DNA of 39,208 bases from a virus: positions 1 through 39,208 of the IMG/VR virus record IMGVR_UViG_3300045988_042900; one strand, 5' to 3'. Below the pieces are notes generated by a model. The model was not told where the DNA came from. It searched no databases and worked only from the letters and a program-made list of their open reading frames with translations. This document shows positions 1-39,208 of the stretch, piece by piece. Made by a program: the position numbers and the translations under genes. Each line of letters opens with the position of its first letter. Position 1 is the first letter of the stretch.

Positions 1-28
1 TTAAGTATCTCCCTTAACTGTCTTTATT
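1..28. repeat. Terminal direct repeat, copy 1 (identical to 39181-39208)
   Basis: TTAAGTATCTCCCTTAACTGTCTTTATT occurs verbatim at both ends of the window. This implies a circular or permuted 39,180-bp unit, or an assembly overlap. Confidence 0.9.
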
Positions 29-32
29 ATAC

Positions 33-46
33 TACACACGTGTGTA
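33..46. promoter_or_regulatory. Perfect 14-bp palindrome TACACACGTGTGTA (operator-like)
   Basis: The sequence is self-complementary. It lies in the divergent intergenic region between the minus gene 38983-39156 (across the junction) and the plus cargo operon that starts at 150. Confidence 0.45.
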
Positions 47-149
47 TATGTCAAGCCCAAAATGATATTTTTTAGAGATTTTTATGGGATTTTTTCCGCA
101 TGGTTGGTTTACCAAAAATTTGGTACGGTATAAGCAGGAGGTGGGGCAA

Positions 150-527
150 ATGTGGCACTCTTACAACGCAAACCCAGACGAGAAAAATGTCGGGGATTGC
201 GTTATCAGATCCATTTGCACCGCCATGAATGTGCCGTGGGAAGATGCCTATATAGGCGTATGTGCCCATGGGCTAAAGCTCCACGATCTCCCGTCGGCTA
301 ACCGTGTTTGGGGTGATTACCTCAGACAGCAGGGCTATACACGGCACGCCATGCCGAATACCTGCCCGGACTGCTACACGGTGGCGGATTTTACGGCGGA
401 TCACCCAACCGGAACTTACGTCCTAGCGCTTCCCAGCCATGTTGTATGCGTTCGGGATGGAGACTGGATCGACACATGGGACAGCGGCGACGAGACACCC
501 ATCTACTATTGGACTAAGGAGGGATAG
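150..527 (+). CDS. Papain-like/NlpC-like cysteine peptidase-fold protein (uncharacterised)
   Basis: AGGAGG at 136-141 sits 8 nt before the ATG at 150, so this internal start is preferred over the track start at 84. Candidate Cys (GDCVIRSI) and His/Asp (HVVCVRDGDWIDTWDS) residues are arranged like a Cys-His-Asp triad. Confidence 0.6.
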   Translation: MWHSYNANPDEKNVGDCVIRSICTAMNVPWEDAYIGVCAHGLKLHDLPSANRVWGDYLRQQGYTRHAMPNTCPDCYTVADFTADHPTGTYVLALPSHVVCVRDGDWIDTWDSGDETPIYYWTKEG

Positions 528-529
528 AC

Positions 530-943
530 ATGGCCTATACGCCATACGGTGGCTATAATTTTGGCTACCAGCCTAATATGTATCAGCCAATGCAGAGCCA
601 ACCCGCGCAGGATCAGTTTGCACAGTACCGGCAGAACCAGCAACATGGCATGATTTGGGTGCAGGGCGAGTCAGGGGCAAAAAGCTACCTCGTTTCAGCT
701 GGATGTACTGTCCCCCTGTGGGACAGCGAGAACCAGACGGTCTACATCAAATCCTGCGATGCGTCGGGTATGCCCTCAATGCGAATCATCGACTATACGG
801 AGCGCGTACAGGCTCATGGTCAAGCCCCGGCGGCGGCTCCTAAACTGGAGTATGTGACGCGGCAGGAGTATGACGCACTCGCCGCCAGAGTAGACGCGCT
901 AAGTAAAAAGGAGGTTACGCAGAATGCCGAACCCACTGTTTAA
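530..943 (+). CDS. Hypothetical protein with a Q/Y/P-rich N-terminus
   Basis: AAGGAGGGA precedes the ATG at 530. The N-terminus is low-complexity and Gln-rich, followed by a globular core (GMIWVQGESGAKSY...YIKSCDASGMP). Confidence 0.7.
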   Translation: MAYTPYGGYNFGYQPNMYQPMQSQPAQDQFAQYRQNQQHGMIWVQGESGAKSYLVSAGCTVPLWDSENQTVYIKSCDASGMPSMRIIDYTERVQAHGQAPAAAPKLEYVTRQEYDALAARVDALSKKEVTQNAEPTV

Positions 944-1148
944 CGCCCTAGGCGGGAGCCAGATGCCCGGGCCACTGGGCAACTTTACACAGATGATGCA
1001 GCAATTCCAGCGGTTTAAGGCAAACTTTAATGGCGACCCTAAAGCGGAGGTACAAAAGCTGTTGCAATCCGGCAAAATGTCGCAGCAGCAATTAGACCAG
1101 CTCCAAGCGGCTGCGAAGCAGTTCCAGGCGTTGCTGGGCAATAAGTAA
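924..1148 (+). CDS. Hypothetical small Gln-rich protein
   Basis: AAAAGGAGG lies 10 nt upstream of the ATG. The start overlaps the previous gene by 20 nt. The product is helical and Q-rich. Confidence 0.6.
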   Translation: MPNPLFNALGGSQMPGPLGNFTQMMQQFQRFKANFNGDPKAEVQKLLQSGKMSQQQLDQLQAAAKQFQALLGNK

Positions 1149-1200
1149 GCAATTCCGGCCAGAATTGACATAAATCAAAATTTTGAAAGGGGGAGACAAA

Positions 1201-1959
1201 ATGTCTCTGACAACTAGCGAGATGACCCCTGCTGATATCGCAGCTGTGACCAACAACGGCGGCAATAGCGGCTGGGGATTCGGTGGCGACGGCGCATGGT
1301 GGATTATCATCCTGTTCCTGTTCGTTTTCTGTGGTTGGGGCGGCAATTGGGGCAACGGCGGCATTGGTGGCAACGGCGCGGGTGCCGTTGATGGATATGT
1401 GCTGACCTCCGATTTTGCCAACATCGAGCGCAAGCTTGACAGTGTAAACAACGGCATTTGCGACGGCTTTTATGCAATGAATACCGGTATGCTTAACGGC
1501 TTTGCAAACGTGACCCAGGCTGTTACCGGTGGATTCTCTCAGGCGGAGTTGTCCCGTTGCAACCAGCAGGCGGCGCTTATGCAGCAGCTTAACAATATGG
1601 CCATGCAGCAGGCTAATTGCTGCTGCGAGACCAGAGAGGCAATCCAGGGCGTAAATTACAACTTGGCAACCCAGAGCTGTGACACCCGGAACACCATCCA
1701 GAATACCACCCGGGACATCATCGACGCGATGAATTGCGGTTTCCGTAGCCTGGATCAGCGTCTGACCTCTCAGGAGATCGCGGCGAAGGATAGCAAGATT
1801 GCCGAGCAGAACCAGCAGCTGTTCGCAGCCCAGCTGGCAGCATCCCAGGCGGCTCAGAACAGCTACCTGGTATCTCAGCTCCGGCCTACTCCTATTCCGG
1901 CCTATGCATCTTGCAACCCCTGGGCTGCTGGATCGTATACCGGATGCGCCGGTTGCTAA
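1201..1959 (+). CDS. Membrane protein with a Gly/Trp-rich N-terminus (YjcZ-like flavour) and a Cys/Gln/Asn-rich C-terminal region
   Basis: GGGGGAGA precedes the ATG at 1201 (the track start at 1183 is a TTG). The sequence GGNSGWGFGGDGAWWIIILFLFVFCGWGGNWGNGG contains one TM segment. Cys clusters include CCC and the terminal CAGC. Confidence 0.65.
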   Translation: MSLTTSEMTPADIAAVTNNGGNSGWGFGGDGAWWIIILFLFVFCGWGGNWGNGGIGGNGAGAVDGYVLTSDFANIERKLDSVNNGICDGFYAMNTGMLNGFANVTQAVTGGFSQAELSRCNQQAALMQQLNNMAMQQANCCCETREAIQGVNYNLATQSCDTRNTIQNTTRDIIDAMNCGFRSLDQRLTSQEIAAKDSKIAEQNQQLFAAQLAASQAAQNSYLVSQLRPTPIPAYASCNPWAAGSYTGCAGC

Positions 1960-2020
1960 CAGCATATAGATCAACTGTTCGGTTACCCCGGACTGTTCGG
2001 CTCCTGCCGATAATGATTAC

Positions 2021-2049
2021 GCGGCGGGGATCACACCCCGCCGCTTTTT
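2021..2049 (+). terminator. Rho-independent terminator inside the cargo operon
   Basis: A 9-bp GC stem (GCGGCGGGG/CCCCGCCGC) with a 6-nt loop is followed by TTTTT. The RBS of the next gene follows immediately. Confidence 0.7.
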
Positions 2050-2064
2050 GAAAGGAGAAAACAA

Positions 2065-2487
2065 ATGGCCGAGTATACAAATAGCAGCGTTGTGGCGGTA
2101 GCTGCTGGTCAAAACGTGCCGCTGACGGAGACCGCTGTAGCTGGGAAATCCTGCGTAGTGCACCGGGAAGGCGCTGGTATTGTCACACTGCGTGGCCTGA
2201 CAAATCAGTGCAAGGCCCGTTATAAGGTCAGCTTTGGCGGCAATATCGCCGTGCCTACCGGTGGCACTGTTGAGGCAATCACCGCAGCCCTGGCGGTTAA
2301 CGGGGAGGCACTGGCTAGCACCACGGCTACCGTTACCCCTGCGGCGGTGGAGAACTATTTTAACATCTATGTTGCGGCATTTGTCGAGGTGCCGCGTGGA
2401 TGTTGCGTAACCGTTGCGGCGAGAAATACTAGCACCCAGACGATCAATTTTGCCAATAGCAATCTGATTATTGAGCGTGTGGCATAA
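2065..2487 (+). CDS. Hypothetical beta-rich protein resembling the BclA C-terminal (C1q/TNF-like) domain
   Basis: The RBS is AAAGGAG. The product is rich in Ala/Val/Thr/Gly and reads as all-beta (VSFGGNIAVPTGGTVEAI...VAARNTSTQTINFANSNLIIERV). The family resemblance is from memory only. Confidence 0.6.
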   Translation: MAEYTNSSVVAVAAGQNVPLTETAVAGKSCVVHREGAGIVTLRGLTNQCKARYKVSFGGNIAVPTGGTVEAITAALAVNGEALASTTATVTPAAVENYFNIYVAAFVEVPRGCCVTVAARNTSTQTINFANSNLIIERVA

Positions 2488-2501
2488 GGGAGGGATATAT
2501 A

Positions 2502-2906
2502 ATGAGTATGCAGGCAATGGACGAGCTGCGGGAAATGCTCTGCAAAGAGCTGGACGAGATCAGCCGGAAGGGCGAGCTTGGAGCCGGTGACCTAGATATC
2601 GTGCACAAGCTGACCGACACCATCAAAAATATTGACAAAATCGAGATGCTGGAAGATGACGGTTATAGCCGTGACGGCGCATGGGAGGCCGACATGCGCG
2701 GCACTTATGGGCGCGGCAATAGCTACGCCGGCCGCCGGGGAACCCATTATGTCAGAGGGCATTATAGCCGCCGGGGAACTGATGGCTATAGCCGTACCGA
2801 CAGCATCGAGGCATTCCGTGACCGCGCGCGAGAGATGATGCGCAACGCGACCGGCGAAGAACGCGAAGTGCTCCAGCGCTGCGTGGATGCTCTGGATCGG
2901 GCATAG
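2502..2906 (+). CDS. Hypothetical protein with helical ends and a central Arg/Gly/Tyr-rich segment
   Basis: The RBS is GGGAGGGA. The central segment reads GYSRDG...YGRGNSYAGRRGTHYVRGHYSRRGTDGYSR. I recall similar proteins in Clostridia prophages, with no known function. Confidence 0.65.
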   Translation: MSMQAMDELREMLCKELDEISRKGELGAGDLDIVHKLTDTIKNIDKIEMLEDDGYSRDGAWEADMRGTYGRGNSYAGRRGTHYVRGHYSRRGTDGYSRTDSIEAFRDRAREMMRNATGEEREVLQRCVDALDRA

Positions 2907-2920
2907 CCCAGGAGGGGCGT

Positions 2921-3229
2921 ATGCTTGATTTGGACGAGATTAACGCCGCCATTCGGGAACTGGAGAACGGTGAAACTACCCTTGCAAATTGCTCTAAACT
3001 AGCAACACTGCACACAGTAAGAGACCATCTAATAGAGACCGACTATGCTCCGTATTCCTACGCCTCTGCACCAGTGGTGGCTGTTTCAGGCGATAGCGAT
3101 TTTATGCGTACCATTTCGGGCCGTAACAATCAGGAAGTAATGGATATCATGGATGATCTTATGGACACGCTCAGGGTATCAATGCCGAAAGCGTATCGCA
3201 GCGTGATGGAGCGGCTGCGGAGCATATAA
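2921..3229 (+). CDS. Hypothetical protein, apparent partner of 2502-2906
   Basis: The RBS is GGAGGGG. It is the last gene of the cargo operon and is followed by a strong terminator. Confidence 0.65.
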   Translation: MLDLDEINAAIRELENGETTLANCSKLATLHTVRDHLIETDYAPYSYASAPVVAVSGDSDFMRTISGRNNQEVMDIMDDLMDTLRVSMPKAYRSVMERLRSI

Positions 3230-3230
3230 G

Positions 3231-3262
3231 TAGAGGGGCGGTTATCCGCCCCTCTATTATTT
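3231..3262. terminator. Bidirectional terminator between the cargo operon and the integrase
   Basis: An 11-bp stem (TAGAGGGGCGG/CCGCCCCTCTA) with loop TTAT is followed by a T-rich tail. It sits between convergent genes. Confidence 0.8.
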
Positions 3263-3292
3263 GGTTATAATTGACCGTGAGTACACCAAAGG

Positions 3293-4618
3293 TTAAATAT
3301 AGCCAACTAATTCAAAATTTATTTCGCCGTCGTTGCTGACGGAGATTTTTTTAACGGTACGCCTCCAAAACTCACGGCGCTCTGACGGCTCTAAACCACC
3401 GTAAACGTTCATCGTGGATTTCAGTGCATCTACATCTATTTGCTCCTTTTCTTCCGGCTCCGGGGCTTCTAACTGCTTTCTGAGCGATGTGTAGTCCTTT
3501 ACGTATACGTCGCGCTCTATCAAGTCGGACAGGTACAGGTCTTTGAGTTTTTCCATTTTGCGCCTTATCGCCGCCTTGTCTACAGTTGGCTGATTGGATG
3601 CGTTCTGCTGGGCGACCTCTACATTGTAGCCGATGCATCCGGATATGATGTGATCTACCATGTACTGCTCCAGATCGTCTTCACGCTCCCGGCGGCGATG
3701 GACGCAGGAGCGGCCTGCATAGCTTGGGCACTTGTAGTACACGTATTCGCCACCGTGGACGTGGGACATGGTGCCGGACAGGCGACGACCACACTCGGCA
3801 CAGAACACTATACCGGTAAATAGATATATATGCCTTTGCGTAAAATCTCCGCTGTGACGGGTGGAACGCTCTGCCATGATGGACTGAGCAAGGGCAAAAT
3901 CCTGCGGTGGGACGATGGGCGGGTATAACTGCTCACCGTTATCTGCAACGCCAATATACCGCTTATTTTTGAGCATCTGCTTTGTGTTTTTATAGGAGCG
4001 GGTGATACCATACTCGGACAGGAGATAGCGCCCAGTTGAGGTGACGGATTGAGTGGCGATAAAATGCCGGAACACATCTCGGACAACAGGGGCAGTTTCA
4101 GGGTCTTCCACCAGTTTTCCTTTGACGATTTTTAGTCCAAGCGGTTGCGTGCCGTGATGGCACAGGCCATTCTCCCGCTTATTCTTGTTTATGGTTTTGA
4201 TTCGTTCTGATGTACGGTCAGCCTCCGATTCAGCAACCGATAGCATGATGTTGACCTTAAATCTTCCGGCGCTAGTCTCTGTCTCATACTCCTCCTCAAT
4301 CGTTTTCCAGCAGACGCGGTGTTCGTCCAAAACGTCCTGAACTTTATAATATTCTTTGACATTTCGGAACCACCGGTCTAGCTTGGTAAATACAATCATC
4401 TCAATTTTATCAGCTCTAACATCGTTCAAAAGCCGCTGCAAATCCGGACGCTTTGATGCTGGCTTTCTGGCTGAGATTCCGGCATCAACGTACACGTCCA
4501 CTATCGTATGATGGTTTTCGTTTGCCCATTTTTTCAAATTTTCCTGCTGCACCCCGATTGACAAGCCATGTATGGCCTGCTCCTCCGTGGACACTCGCGC
4601 ATACAGCGCTACACGCAT
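3293..4618 (-). CDS. Large serine recombinase (phage integrase)
   Basis: The N-terminus MRVALYARVSTEEQ is the resolvase catalytic Ser motif. A recombinase domain, a Cys zinc ribbon (CAECGRRL...YYKCPSY...C) and a C-terminal coiled coil follow. The RBS is GGAGGA. Confidence 0.9.
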   Translation of the reverse strand: MRVALYARVSTEEQAIHGLSIGVQQENLKKWANENHHTIVDVYVDAGISARKPASKRPDLQRLLNDVRADKIEMIVFTKLDRWFRNVKEYYKVQDVLDEHRVCWKTIEEEYETETSAGRFKVNIMLSVAESEADRTSERIKTINKNKRENGLCHHGTQPLGLKIVKGKLVEDPETAPVVRDVFRHFIATQSVTSTGRYLLSEYGITRSYKNTKQMLKNKRYIGVADNGEQLYPPIVPPQDFALAQSIMAERSTRHSGDFTQRHIYLFTGIVFCAECGRRLSGTMSHVHGGEYVYYKCPSYAGRSCVHRRREREDDLEQYMVDHIISGCIGYNVEVAQQNASNQPTVDKAAIRRKMEKLKDLYLSDLIERDVYVKDYTSLRKQLEAPEPEEKEQIDVDALKSTMNVYGGLEPSERREFWRRTVKKISVSNDGEINFELVGYI

Positions 4619-38469: not shown

Positions 38470-38484
38470 CAGGAGGTGACGGGG

Positions 38485-38682
38485 ATGCAGATCAAGGACT
38501 ATACAGTTCCGGAGTTGGAGCATTTCCGGGCAGCCTGCAATTTTACCAGTCTGGAGCGGGAGTTTTTCGACCTGCGGGCAGCGGGAATTACGATTGAAAG
38601 TTGCTGCGACGCGATGGGGTATTCCATCGGCGGGATACGGCACATTTCCGGACGGGTAAAAAATAAAATGAAACGGGTATGA
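38485..38682 (+). CDS. Small sigma-70 region-4/LuxR-like HTH protein
   Basis: AGGAGG sits 8 nt before the ATG at 38485. The sequence reads FTSLEREFFDLRAAGITIESCCDAMGYSIGGIRHISGRV. Confidence 0.6.
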   Translation: MQIKDYTVPELEHFRAACNFTSLEREFFDLRAAGITIESCCDAMGYSIGGIRHISGRVKNKMKRV

Positions 38683-38715
38683 AAAATCCCCCACCTTTCG
38701 GTGGGGGATTTTTTT
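38682..38715. terminator. Bidirectional rho-independent terminator
   Basis: A 14-bp stem (AAAAATCCCCCACC/GGTGGGGGATTTTT) has loop TTTC. Confidence 0.85.
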
Positions 38716-38882
38716 GCCCGTTGAGGCTCCACTCAATCACCACTACGAGAAAAAGGGGAACTACAATTTTGAGGGCAGGATCATTTCAATCCACTGATGC
38801 ATTGTCCAATCTATTTATCGCTACATCCCCACTAACGTGGGGTTGTGACTGGCATATGCATCAGACAGCAGGGGTTACCTGC
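38716..38882 (-). ncRNA. Candidate minus-strand ncRNA carrying a type I-C CRISPR-repeat-like module
   Basis: The unit lies between the promoter at 38889-38917 and the terminator at 38682-38715. On the minus strand, a 9-bp stem (CUGAUGCAU/AUGCAUCAG, 38864-38856 with 38802-38794) is followed at once by UGGAUUGAAAU. The stem encloses the hairpin CCCCAC-GUUA-GUGGGG and a 5' GUCAC. Confidence 0.4.
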
Positions 38883-38888
38883 AATTGT

Positions 38889-38917
38889 ATTTTAACACGC
38901 GTTCTGTAAAATTTCAA
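38889..38917 (-). promoter_or_regulatory. SigA-type promoter (TTGAAA, 17 nt, TAAAAT) on the minus strand
   Basis: The -35 is at 38917-38912 and the -10 at 38894-38889, with a 17-nt spacer. Confidence 0.5.
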
Positions 38918-38946
38918 TAATCAGCCGACCAATTCGGCTGATTATT
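38916..38946. terminator. 13-bp-stem hairpin; terminator of 38983-39156
   Basis: AATAATCAGCCGA-CCAAT-TCGGCTGATTATT. On the minus strand it is followed by GAAAUUUU, so GAUUAUUGAAAU forms a second, degenerate copy of the repeat handle. Confidence 0.65.
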
Positions 38947-38982: not shown

Positions 38983-39156
38983 TCAAATTGCGAATTCTTC
39001 ACCGTACTTTTCCTCATGAGCCTTGCAGTATGCGTCAAAAAACTCCTGTTCTGTGCAACCTCCGATTTCCATGTGCAGTTTTTCTCTGATTTCATCGTCC
39101 ATAAATTGCACGCACTCGTCGAAATCTACCTGATCGTTGTTATAAGATACATACAT
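38983..39156 (-). CDS. 57-aa acidic protein (MYVSYNNDQVDFDECVQFMDDEIREKLHMEIGGCTEQEFFDAYCKAHEEKYGEEFAI)
   Basis: GGGAGGA sits 7 nt before the ATG at 39156. It replaces the poor-looking track ORF 38892-39095, which is in another frame. It is under 60 aa and so absent from the track. Confidence 0.6.
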   Translation of the reverse strand: MYVSYNNDQVDFDECVQFMDDEIREKLHMEIGGCTEQEFFDAYCKAHEEKYGEEFAI

Positions 39157-39180: not shown

Positions 39181-39208
39181 TTAAGTATCTCCCTTAACTG
39201 TCTTTATT
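39181..39208. repeat. Terminal direct repeat, copy 2
   Basis: This is identical to 1-28. Confidence 0.9.

Follow-up and report, generated by a model that had tools for sequence, protein, structure and literature searches.

The stretch of DNA analysed here, called the window throughout (39,208 nt; IMG/VR record IMGVR_UViG_3300045988_042900, positions 1-39,208), is the genome of a circular temperate phage. Circularity follows from a 28-nt overlap of its ends, positions 1-28 being repeated at 39181-39208, and a helix-turn-helix (HTH) repressor, a GH25 endolysin and an r1t-type holin are encoded in it alongside a serine integrase. Close to the circular junction, a short minus-strand gene for a homologue of the anti-CRISPR protein AcrIC5 is followed on the same strand by a noncoding unit (38917 -> 38682) composed of a sigma-70 promoter, a predicted RNA of ~200 nt and a bidirectional terminator (Table 1). 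This RNA unit, whose central part resembles the stem and 3' end of a type I-C CRISPR repeat, is our subject.

Table 1. Features of the RNA unit, the adjoining acrIC5 gene and their surroundings, in window coordinates (aa, amino acids; ORF, open reading frame; crRNA, CRISPR RNA).
Feature	Position	Strand	Remarks
acrIC5 promoter	26..54	minus	TTGACA 54..49, 17-nt spacer, TATAAT 31..26; reads across the junction into 39208
Serine integrase	3293-4618		~5 kb from the RNA unit across the circular junction
Conserved 68-aa ORF	38476-38682	plus	directly 3' of the endolysin gene; marks the insertion point of all unit types
Terminator	38682..38713	bidirectional	14-bp perfect inverted repeat I2, A and T runs at flanks
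3' body	38711..38782	minus	~65-70 nt, structured; common to the type B unit of a sibling phage
11-nt UGGAUUGAAAU	38783..38793	minus	identical to the type I-C crRNA 5' handle
Long hairpin at the repeat stem-loop position	38794..38866	minus	GU overhang 38866-38865, C:G-closed 9-bp stem, 53-nt structured insert (I3)
9-bp stem	38864..38856 with 38802..38794	minus	CUGAUGCAU (38864..38856) pairs with AUGCAUCAG (38802..38794)
Inner hairpin, stem and loop	38842..38827	minus	CCCCAC-GUUA-GUGGGG, inside the 53-nt insert
Inner hairpin, then AUG	38824..38848	minus	resembles a type I-E repeat stem-loop
5' hairpin	38868..38882	minus	GCAGG-UAACC-CCUGC, 5 bp, present in the fold
Unit promoter	38889..38917	minus	-35 TTGAAA 38917..38912, 17-nt spacer, -10 TAAAAT 38894..38889, TG-n extension
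Upstream hairpin	38916..38946	minus	13 bp, perfect inverted repeat I4, after acrIC5; 3' arm overlaps the -35 box
acrIC5 homologue	38983..39156	minus	57 aa; next gene upstream of the RNA unit

The identity of the upstream gene gives the locus its context. Its 57-aa product matched both the Pfam family PF22147 AcrIC5 (E = 9.4e-22, 77.4 bits; cutoff 27) and the solved protein PDB 7YHR, 'Anti-CRISPR protein Type I-C5' (E = 2e-11, residues 3-56 on chain residues 4-58 of 60); with the family profile and the solved protein both significantly matched, the product is a homologue of AcrIC5. The RNA unit thus lies beside an acr gene on the same strand, the end of acrIC5 being 37 nt from the unit's upstream hairpin. 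There is a precedent for such a pairing: RNA anti-CRISPRs (Racrs) were defined as solitary repeat mimics and are enriched beside acr genes, and RacrIC1, a type I-C unit of a Bifidobacterium pseudocatenulatum prophage, lies 11 nt downstream of an AcrIC5 homologue with which it is co-transcribed as one RNA; anti-I-C activity was demonstrated for the RacrIC1 RNA alone and for its AcrIC5 protein alone (Camara-Wilpert et al., Nature 2023, PMC10651486).

The minus-strand promoter of the unit, as located in a preliminary description of this region, agrees with the sigma-70 consensus at 10 of 12 positions and carries a TG extension besides; transcription is predicted to start near 38886-38882. Eight of nine sequence variants of the unit have the consensus TTGACA as their -35 box and three have TACAAT as -10, and the distance from the -10 box to the first hairpin is equal among the sibling unit types described below. 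Two strong hairpin terminators had been proposed to flank the unit. The downstream one stands, as a 14-bp repeat with a U-tract that closes the RNA fold, is common to the unit and to the convergent plus-strand 68-aa ORF ending at 38682, and is kept in all relatives, even in the unit-less contig L006. The upstream 13-bp hairpin has a weak U-tract (GAAAUUUU) and is a probable, possibly leaky terminator, so that some read-through from acrIC5 is possible. A 'degenerate second handle' (GATTATTGAAAT) formerly placed here dissolves into the 3' arm of this hairpin plus the -35 box; relatives read GATTATTGACAT at this position, and it is therefore not a handle. Small ORFs within the unit region lack a ribosome-binding site, and a plus-strand 76-aa ORF cannot be conserved, because sibling DNA there differs or is missing. 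The promoter and intrinsic terminator signals would allow expression as a small RNA.

The 201-nt RNA has a predicted folding energy of -87.5 kcal/mol, compared with -54.4 +/- 4.4 for shuffled sequences (z = -7.57). At its centre lies an exact 12-nt GTGGATTGAAAT (38794..38783, minus), the sole exact copy in the window and a sequence that arose in 0 of 100 dinucleotide shuffles. This handle at 38783-38794, the 9-bp stem directly before it and the 53-nt insert with its GC hairpin were all recovered as first reported. GUC (38866..38864) sits directly at the base of the long stem, and the whole long hairpin therefore takes the place of the repeat stem-loop. With one exact handle in the window, the element is a single repeat-like unit on a mobile element, outside any array; since there are no periodic direct repeats, it is not itself an array.

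That GTGGATTGAAAT is a bona fide I-C repeat end is borne out by arrays. An exact-match scan for the handle extended by 9 nt of adjoining body sequence, run over one genome per species (185,579 genomes), returned three loci, all of them ordinary I-C arrays whose spacer starts with the same 9 nt by chance: in Paenibacillus oralis (GTCGCACTCTACGTGAGTGCGTGGATTGAAAT), Ca. Fimenecus stercoravium (GTCGCTCCCCGCACGGGGAGCGTGGATTGAAAT) and Amphibacillus sediminis. Because the repeats of these three real arrays end in it, GTGGATTGAAAT is a genuine I-C repeat end in Bacillota. Such a repeat has a 7-bp stem capped by a 5-nt loop, with 2 nt overhanging at its 5' end and 11 nt at its 3' end; of these elements the processing enzyme Cas5c (also called Cas5d) reads the stem base, U22-G23-G24 and the 3' overhang while ignoring the loop and the 5' overhang (PMC8524198). 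Folded in isolation, the corresponding segment of the window starts with GU as a 2-nt overhang, continues in a stem closed by C:G and ends in an 11-nt UGGAUUGAAAU tail, which is the layout of the three real I-C repeats and of RacrIC1. As judged from this comparison, the unit retains every element that Cas5c reads and differs in one that it ignores, with 53 nt in place of the loop. By analogy, Cas5c would be predicted to cut between G38794 and U38793.

Relatives of the locus carry the same unit, or a different one, in the same place. Sixteen metagenome contigs encode exactly this AcrIC5 protein; ten of the 16 are listed, from ten samples, and nine of these ten extend past acrIC5. In all nine, representing nine independent samples, an intact unit follows, set between the same flanking sequences. 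Sibling loci, found in IMG/VR with the 68-aa ORF (38476-38682) as anchor, carry different cargo just past the shared terminator. The window's own form, type A, comprises nine sequence variants that are all >90% identical, and in some genomes (L004, L005) has a different gene upstream; the stem of its 5' hairpin is kept among variants while the loop varies, the L004 variant has a mutated handle and the L034 variant a stem mismatch. Type B (L010) consists of TTGACA-17-TAATAT, 6 nt, a canonical short unit (GTCAGGGTGAAAGCCCCTGTGGATTGAAAT) and then the 3' body and terminator of type A. Type C (L009, L012) consists of two tandem units, GTCTGGGGGACAACCTCAGTGGATTGAAAT and GTCAGGGCGCAAGCCCCGTGGATTGAAAT, each with a promoter and a terminator. 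From L006 the unit is missing as a clean indel relative to L005, a presence/absence polymorphism that marks it as a discrete module. Apart from two single-base variants, the handle is constant across types A, B and C.

Four unit types have nothing in common but the distance from promoter to hairpin, a stem of GU/C...G geometry and the handle, a pattern that selection on Cas5c recognition would leave. The alignment of types A and B also suggests how the long hairpin could have arisen. When the two are aligned, their promoters coincide and the 5' hairpin of type A falls on the repeat hairpin of type B, the hairpin segment being equalled by 11 of 5000 shuffles, and the 5' hairpin is a likely homologue of the type B repeat hairpin, that is, the ancestral repeat stem-loop. 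Type A accordingly looks like a type B-like unit that gained a ~75-nt hairpin exactly at the Cas5c cut site, although the direction of this change is inferred; the base of the insert recreates GUC...G ahead of the handle.

Because an AcrIC5 homologue adjoins it, sibling phages carry canonical I-C units and an AcrIC5-RacrIC1 pair has been validated, we consider the unit to be, with fair probability, a Racr-type repeat mimic directed against type I-C systems, lying in an anti-CRISPR locus together with acrIC5. Together with the retention of the Cas5c-read elements, these observations strengthen the RNA anti-CRISPR role that the preliminary description had put forward as one of two. In the mechanism that we propose, transcription from the promoter of the unit, perhaps supplemented by read-through from that of acrIC5, would yield an RNA of ~200 nt, as the sequence signals suggest. 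As sequence and folding show, its C:G-closed stem directly abuts UGGAUUGAAAU, with GU before it, thereby presenting the stem base, cut site and 3' tail of an I-C repeat. Given the published specificity of the enzyme, host Cas5c would bind this site, probably cut it at G38794/U38793 and stay on the 11-nt handle. By analogy with RacrIF1 and RacrIC1, Cas7 and Cas8c may then assemble on a meaningless structured body, giving non-productive complexes and diverting Cas subunits from real crRNAs. Such a decoy would act in parallel with AcrIC5, which works at the protein level. As to the likely origin of the unusual form, the 53-nt loop (equivalent to the ~75-nt insertion at the canonical cut site) falls in a part of the repeat that Cas5c does not read.

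Several observations weigh against this interpretation. The unit does not show the full-length repeat similarity by which SRUFinder-type searches recognise solitary repeat units, matching a repeat at GTC and the 12-nt 3' end only, and no Rfam CRISPR-DR family is significant for it; in the unit region, at E up to 10, Rfam returned terminator look-alikes and a non-significant CRISPR-DR9 hit (11.6 bits, E = 5.7), and across the whole window no family reached its gathering threshold and there were no tRNA or tmRNA genes. Within the portion of the published solitary repeat unit (SRU) table available to us, the hairpin sequences of the sibling units were likewise absent. The stem is AU-rich, 9 bp long and closed by a giant loop, and since the type A copies are >90% identical, covariation cannot test their fold. 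The body opens with five nucleotides, GAUCC (AAUCC in type B), that can pair with GGAUU of the handle in a predicted 5-bp hairpin (38783-38797 with 38778-38782), by which the handle would be partly hidden in the free RNA, and full-length folds pair the handle GGAUU with the body start (unpaired probability at most 0.06), which could compete with Cas5c; the pairing may be due to chance or could modulate access of the enzyme. A host I-C system is presumed from AcrIC5 and the mimicry only. Finally, a pure decoy has no obvious need for a conserved 65-nt body, which hints at an extra or a different function.

A guide role we regard as possible, though unlikely. Viral Cracr/crlRNAs, type I-C ones among them, are mini-arrays that silence the promoters of cas genes or toxins by means of short spacers imitating host CreR/CreA; their layout is repeat, short spacer, second repeat, with a match to cas/creT promoters over at least 9 nt next to the protospacer-adjacent motif (PAM) (bioRxiv 10.1101/2024.10.29.618823), and host CreR/CreA are degenerate mini-CRISPRs (bioRxiv 10.1101/2023.03.10.532045). 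Applied to the window, the handle and the first 10-30 nt of the body would direct host I-C Cascade, by partial complementarity to a host promoter, to silence a cas operon or a CreT-like toxin promoter, with the terminator hairpin replacing the 3' repeat. Like Cracr/crlRNAs, the unit is a phage-borne, promoter-driven, repeat-like element joined to non-repeat sequence, and it lies, as they often do, beside an acr gene. The 3' body is nearly constant across type A variants and common to units with different 5' modules, and the tandem units of siblings L009 and L012 look guide-like. Where these two contigs (3205-3560, minus) are compared, the 18 nt following the handle (ATATACTTTATTTAGATT versus GTGTACTTTGTTTAGATT) show an identical set of three A-to-G changes in both copies, and the remainder of unit 1 is identical except for the last handle base (T to A). 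This concerted change, expected of a sequence-specific guide, suggests a guide-like role of the post-handle segment, or gene conversion.

Unlike Cracr/crlRNAs, however, the window unit has no significant second repeat: the best candidate in the body, GTGGTGATTGA, lacks a stem ahead of it, and 73 of 1000 shuffles score as well. Nor was a host counterpart found, for the species-genome scan, which asked for an exact handle plus 9 nt in one genome per species, yielded the three chance spacers and no CreR/CreA-like element. No seed match with a PAM was present in any of the fetched loci. The body was equally without targets elsewhere: blastn of the unit against GenBank phages and PLSDB gave terminator-like matches only (E >= 3) and no protospacer, a conserved 19-mer of the body occurred in IMG/VR only within the units themselves, no TTC-flanked match to its first 22 nt was present in JGI metagenome contigs, and within the window there was nothing beyond chance matches of 11-13 nt. 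The ~65 nt after the handle, described earlier as unique, indeed match nothing in these four collections apart from the units themselves, whether or not a TTC PAM is required. Because neither a protospacer nor a host CreR-like counterpart was found, both the guide role and the mini-array role considered below are unsupported.

We think it very unlikely that the unit is a structured phage small RNA or a decaying relic unrelated to CRISPR, whose 12-nt match would be chance or a dead repeat remnant. The lack of an Rfam family, the large insertion that displaces the canonical hairpin and could amount to a disruption, the handle mutation in L004 and the stem mismatch in L034 would all suit such an origin. 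It fits poorly with the rarity of the exact 12-mer in shuffled sequence and with an insertion that recreates GU and a C:G stem base exactly at the handle, beside an AcrIC5 gene. A relic would also hardly be expected to leave promoter spacing, stem geometry and handle as all that four unit types share, and type A is the prevalent form across many samples.

Also highly improbable, in our judgement, is the second role offered by the preliminary description, a single-spacer mini-array whose body directs host I-C Cascade-Cas3 against a competing mobile element. Mini-CRISPR arrays of viruses, with at least two repeats and spacers matching related viruses, are reportedly known (Medvedeva et al. 2019; Faure et al. 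2019). The unit shares with them that it is a CRISPR-derived element on a cas-less virus (gene tables of near-identical contigs contain no Cas families), and the unique sequence after its handle exceeds the length of a spacer. Unlike them, it has one repeat-like unit, and no protospacer for it was found in GenBank phages, PLSDB, IMG/VR (19-mer) or JGI contigs (TTC + 22 nt). Its body, moreover, is nearly constant over variants, unlike spacers. We give practically no credence to an attP or other recombination or packaging site: the region is intergenic, contains inverted repeats and has the lysis module of this temperate phage on one side and cargo genes on the other, but the serine integrase lies ~5 kb off across the circular junction, the unit is never split in any contig examined (the splitting to be expected of an attP was absent from contigs of nine independent samples, with the same flanks throughout), it is cleanly missing as a module in L006, and a recombination site leaves its promoter and terminator architecture unexplained.

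A wider census placed the unit among other promoter-driven I-C elements of viruses. Searching IMG/VR for TTGACA, 28-36 nt, GTC, 14-24 nt and GTGGATTGAAAT returned 37 loci, where by our own estimate ~3 would be expected by chance, corresponding to 25 distinct units. Their stem sequences differ while pairing from C3:G, with a mean of 5.1 consecutive base pairs compared with 1.6 in shuffled interiors; 10-70 nt, mostly AT-rich, follow each unit, and a terminator-like hairpin follows most. Their loops measure 3-23 nt, as opposed to 53 nt in the window unit, and a search of IMG/VR for the long-stem pattern found nothing comparable outside the window's lineage. The census includes a few clear I-C mini-arrays with short spacers, which lend some plausibility to a guide role; L081 and L090, with a repeat, a 33-nt spacer and a second repeat, do the same for a mini-array.

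The IMG/VR scan with the handle plus 9 nt also returned a second family, GGGATTGAAATAATCATGCCCC, which we rejected as an I-C handle and regard as a coincidental look-alike. It recurs in unrelated contigs (L013-L031) from many samples, where it looks like a ribosome-binding site and the start of a conserved gene (MPL...), and it would trip motif-only searches.

The inner GC hairpin had been interpreted as the 5' half of an I-C repeat; it looks more I-E-like, and the resemblance may be coincidental. Repeats designated I-E in the available part of the SRUFinder table (for example GTAAACCCCACATGCGTGGGGATGAACCG) have the same stem followed by AUG, and phage L073 contains an I-E-like mini-array whose second repeat agrees with the hairpin at 17 of 18 positions. 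We consider it doubtful, though conceivable, that the RNA is a two-in-one decoy, in which a Cas6e-type stem-loop (stem, AUG..CG) nested in a Cas5c-type site would allow one transcript to titrate two type I systems. Two facts argue against the idea: few stretches of the unit vary as much as the putative I-E handle, and the phage terminators use nearly the same stem. The inner hairpin has no Rfam CRISPR-DR match, an exact search for it returned nothing from the accessible portion of the SRU table, and no array containing it exactly was present in JGI metagenomes. Its one other occurrence in IMG/VR is in an unrelated viral contig, L117 (39-58, minus), where GTCAAGTTCCCCACGTTAGTGGGGATGTTAC, with 20 nt in common with the inner hairpin, lies downstream of a promoter-like AT-rich stretch and may be an I-E-like solitary repeat. 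Phage L073 itself carries an I-C mini-array with short spacer-like segments (1812-1990, plus) and, ~1.4 kb apart, the I-E-like mini-array (3270-3370, minus), which reads CTCCCCACGCATGTGGGGATGATCCC, 21 nt, GTGTTCCCCACGTTGGTGGGGATTATGG, terminator; together they resemble a Cracr-like arrangement directed at two CRISPR types. In broader terms, mimics of repeats may have a modular build, and their loops could accept functional insertions invisible to similarity searches.

Compared with RacrIC1, the window unit as interpreted here is a known kind of element in a known pairing, an I-C Racr with AcrIC5, and what is new is its split, long-stem structure. Both are I-C repeat mimics directly downstream of an AcrIC5 homologue, on the same strand, in a temperate phage, with a stem that leads directly into the I-C handle. 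RacrIC1 runs uninterrupted over 34 nt and agrees with a repeat at 29 of them, whereas the window unit matches only GTC and the last 12 nt, and would therefore escape full-length repeat-similarity searches such as SRUFinder. It also differs from RacrIC1 in having its own promoter behind a hairpin, in a stem that is unrelated in sequence, AU-rich, 9 bp long and wrapped around 53 nt, and in the conserved ~65-nt body and terminator that follow. With a genuine I-C repeat or crRNA it shares the GU overhang, the C:G-closed stem and the 11-nt UGGAUUGAAAU tail; unlike such a repeat, it is present in a single copy, its loop measures 53 nt instead of 4-5, and no repeat seen is related to its stem in sequence.

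Until now, RNA anti-CRISPRs have come to light through near-full-length repeat copies. The window unit suggests that a mimic can keep only the elements read by the enzyme (GU, stem base and 11-nt handle) while tolerating, or exploiting, a 53-nt insertion in its loop, and catalogues may therefore miss diverged or split forms. Its lineage, with a canonical hairpin on the same body, the long-stem form, tandem units whose post-handle sequences co-vary and an absent unit, offers a natural series for mapping what Cas5c and I-C Cascade assembly need; all of these states occur within a variable island that also holds HTH (aca-like) genes and genes for small proteins, accompanied in some genomes by AcrIC5. 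The pairing of AcrIC5 with an I-C Racr would, on our interpretation, have been repeated independently, here in a relative of phages from Gram-positive gut bacteria, in favour of a joint deployment of protein and RNA inhibitors. The pairing is not universal, since other AcrIC5 loci in IMG/VR have no handle nearby: within 2.5 kb, none was found beyond the unit's lineage and one chance match in a coding sequence (L047).

As to the phage itself, its nearest matches by TerL are a lemur-gut virus (65%) and Eggerthella phage PMBT5 (55%), the latter being the nearest cultured relative. The scan of 185,579 species genomes contained no prophage copy of the unit, exact-protein look-ups with AcrIC5 and the integrase returned phage-sized metagenome contigs only, and spacers from the fetched I-C arrays gave a single partial match to the window (19/20), which we judge to be chance. 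The 68-aa ORF that anchors the sibling loci belongs to no Pfam family, and its exact sequence is absent from the protein collection.

The promoter of acrIC5 contains in its spacer a perfect 12-nt palindrome (ACACACGTGTGT, 45..34), which gives it the usual look of an Aca-controlled acr promoter and would make the palindrome a putative Aca operator. The same promoter precedes acrIC5 in contigs L032 and L041; L032, which is near-identical to the window, has two copies of it, the first of them driving a 63-aa ORF and an HTH (aca-like) gene. The window genome has no aca gene beside this promoter. Between its lysis module and integrase lies a variable cargo island (84-3229, plus), with counterparts in L005, L009 and L010. 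Pfam searches of the neighbouring cargo ORFs, in the window and in sibling phages, found HTH domains only, the small cassette ORFs being without a match. The sibling islands are built of repeated cassettes, each combining a promoter (a palindromic one at least in L010 and L011) with a small HTH (aca-like) gene and a small ORF, the latter being acidic in L010; these cassette ORFs are candidate new anti-defence genes.

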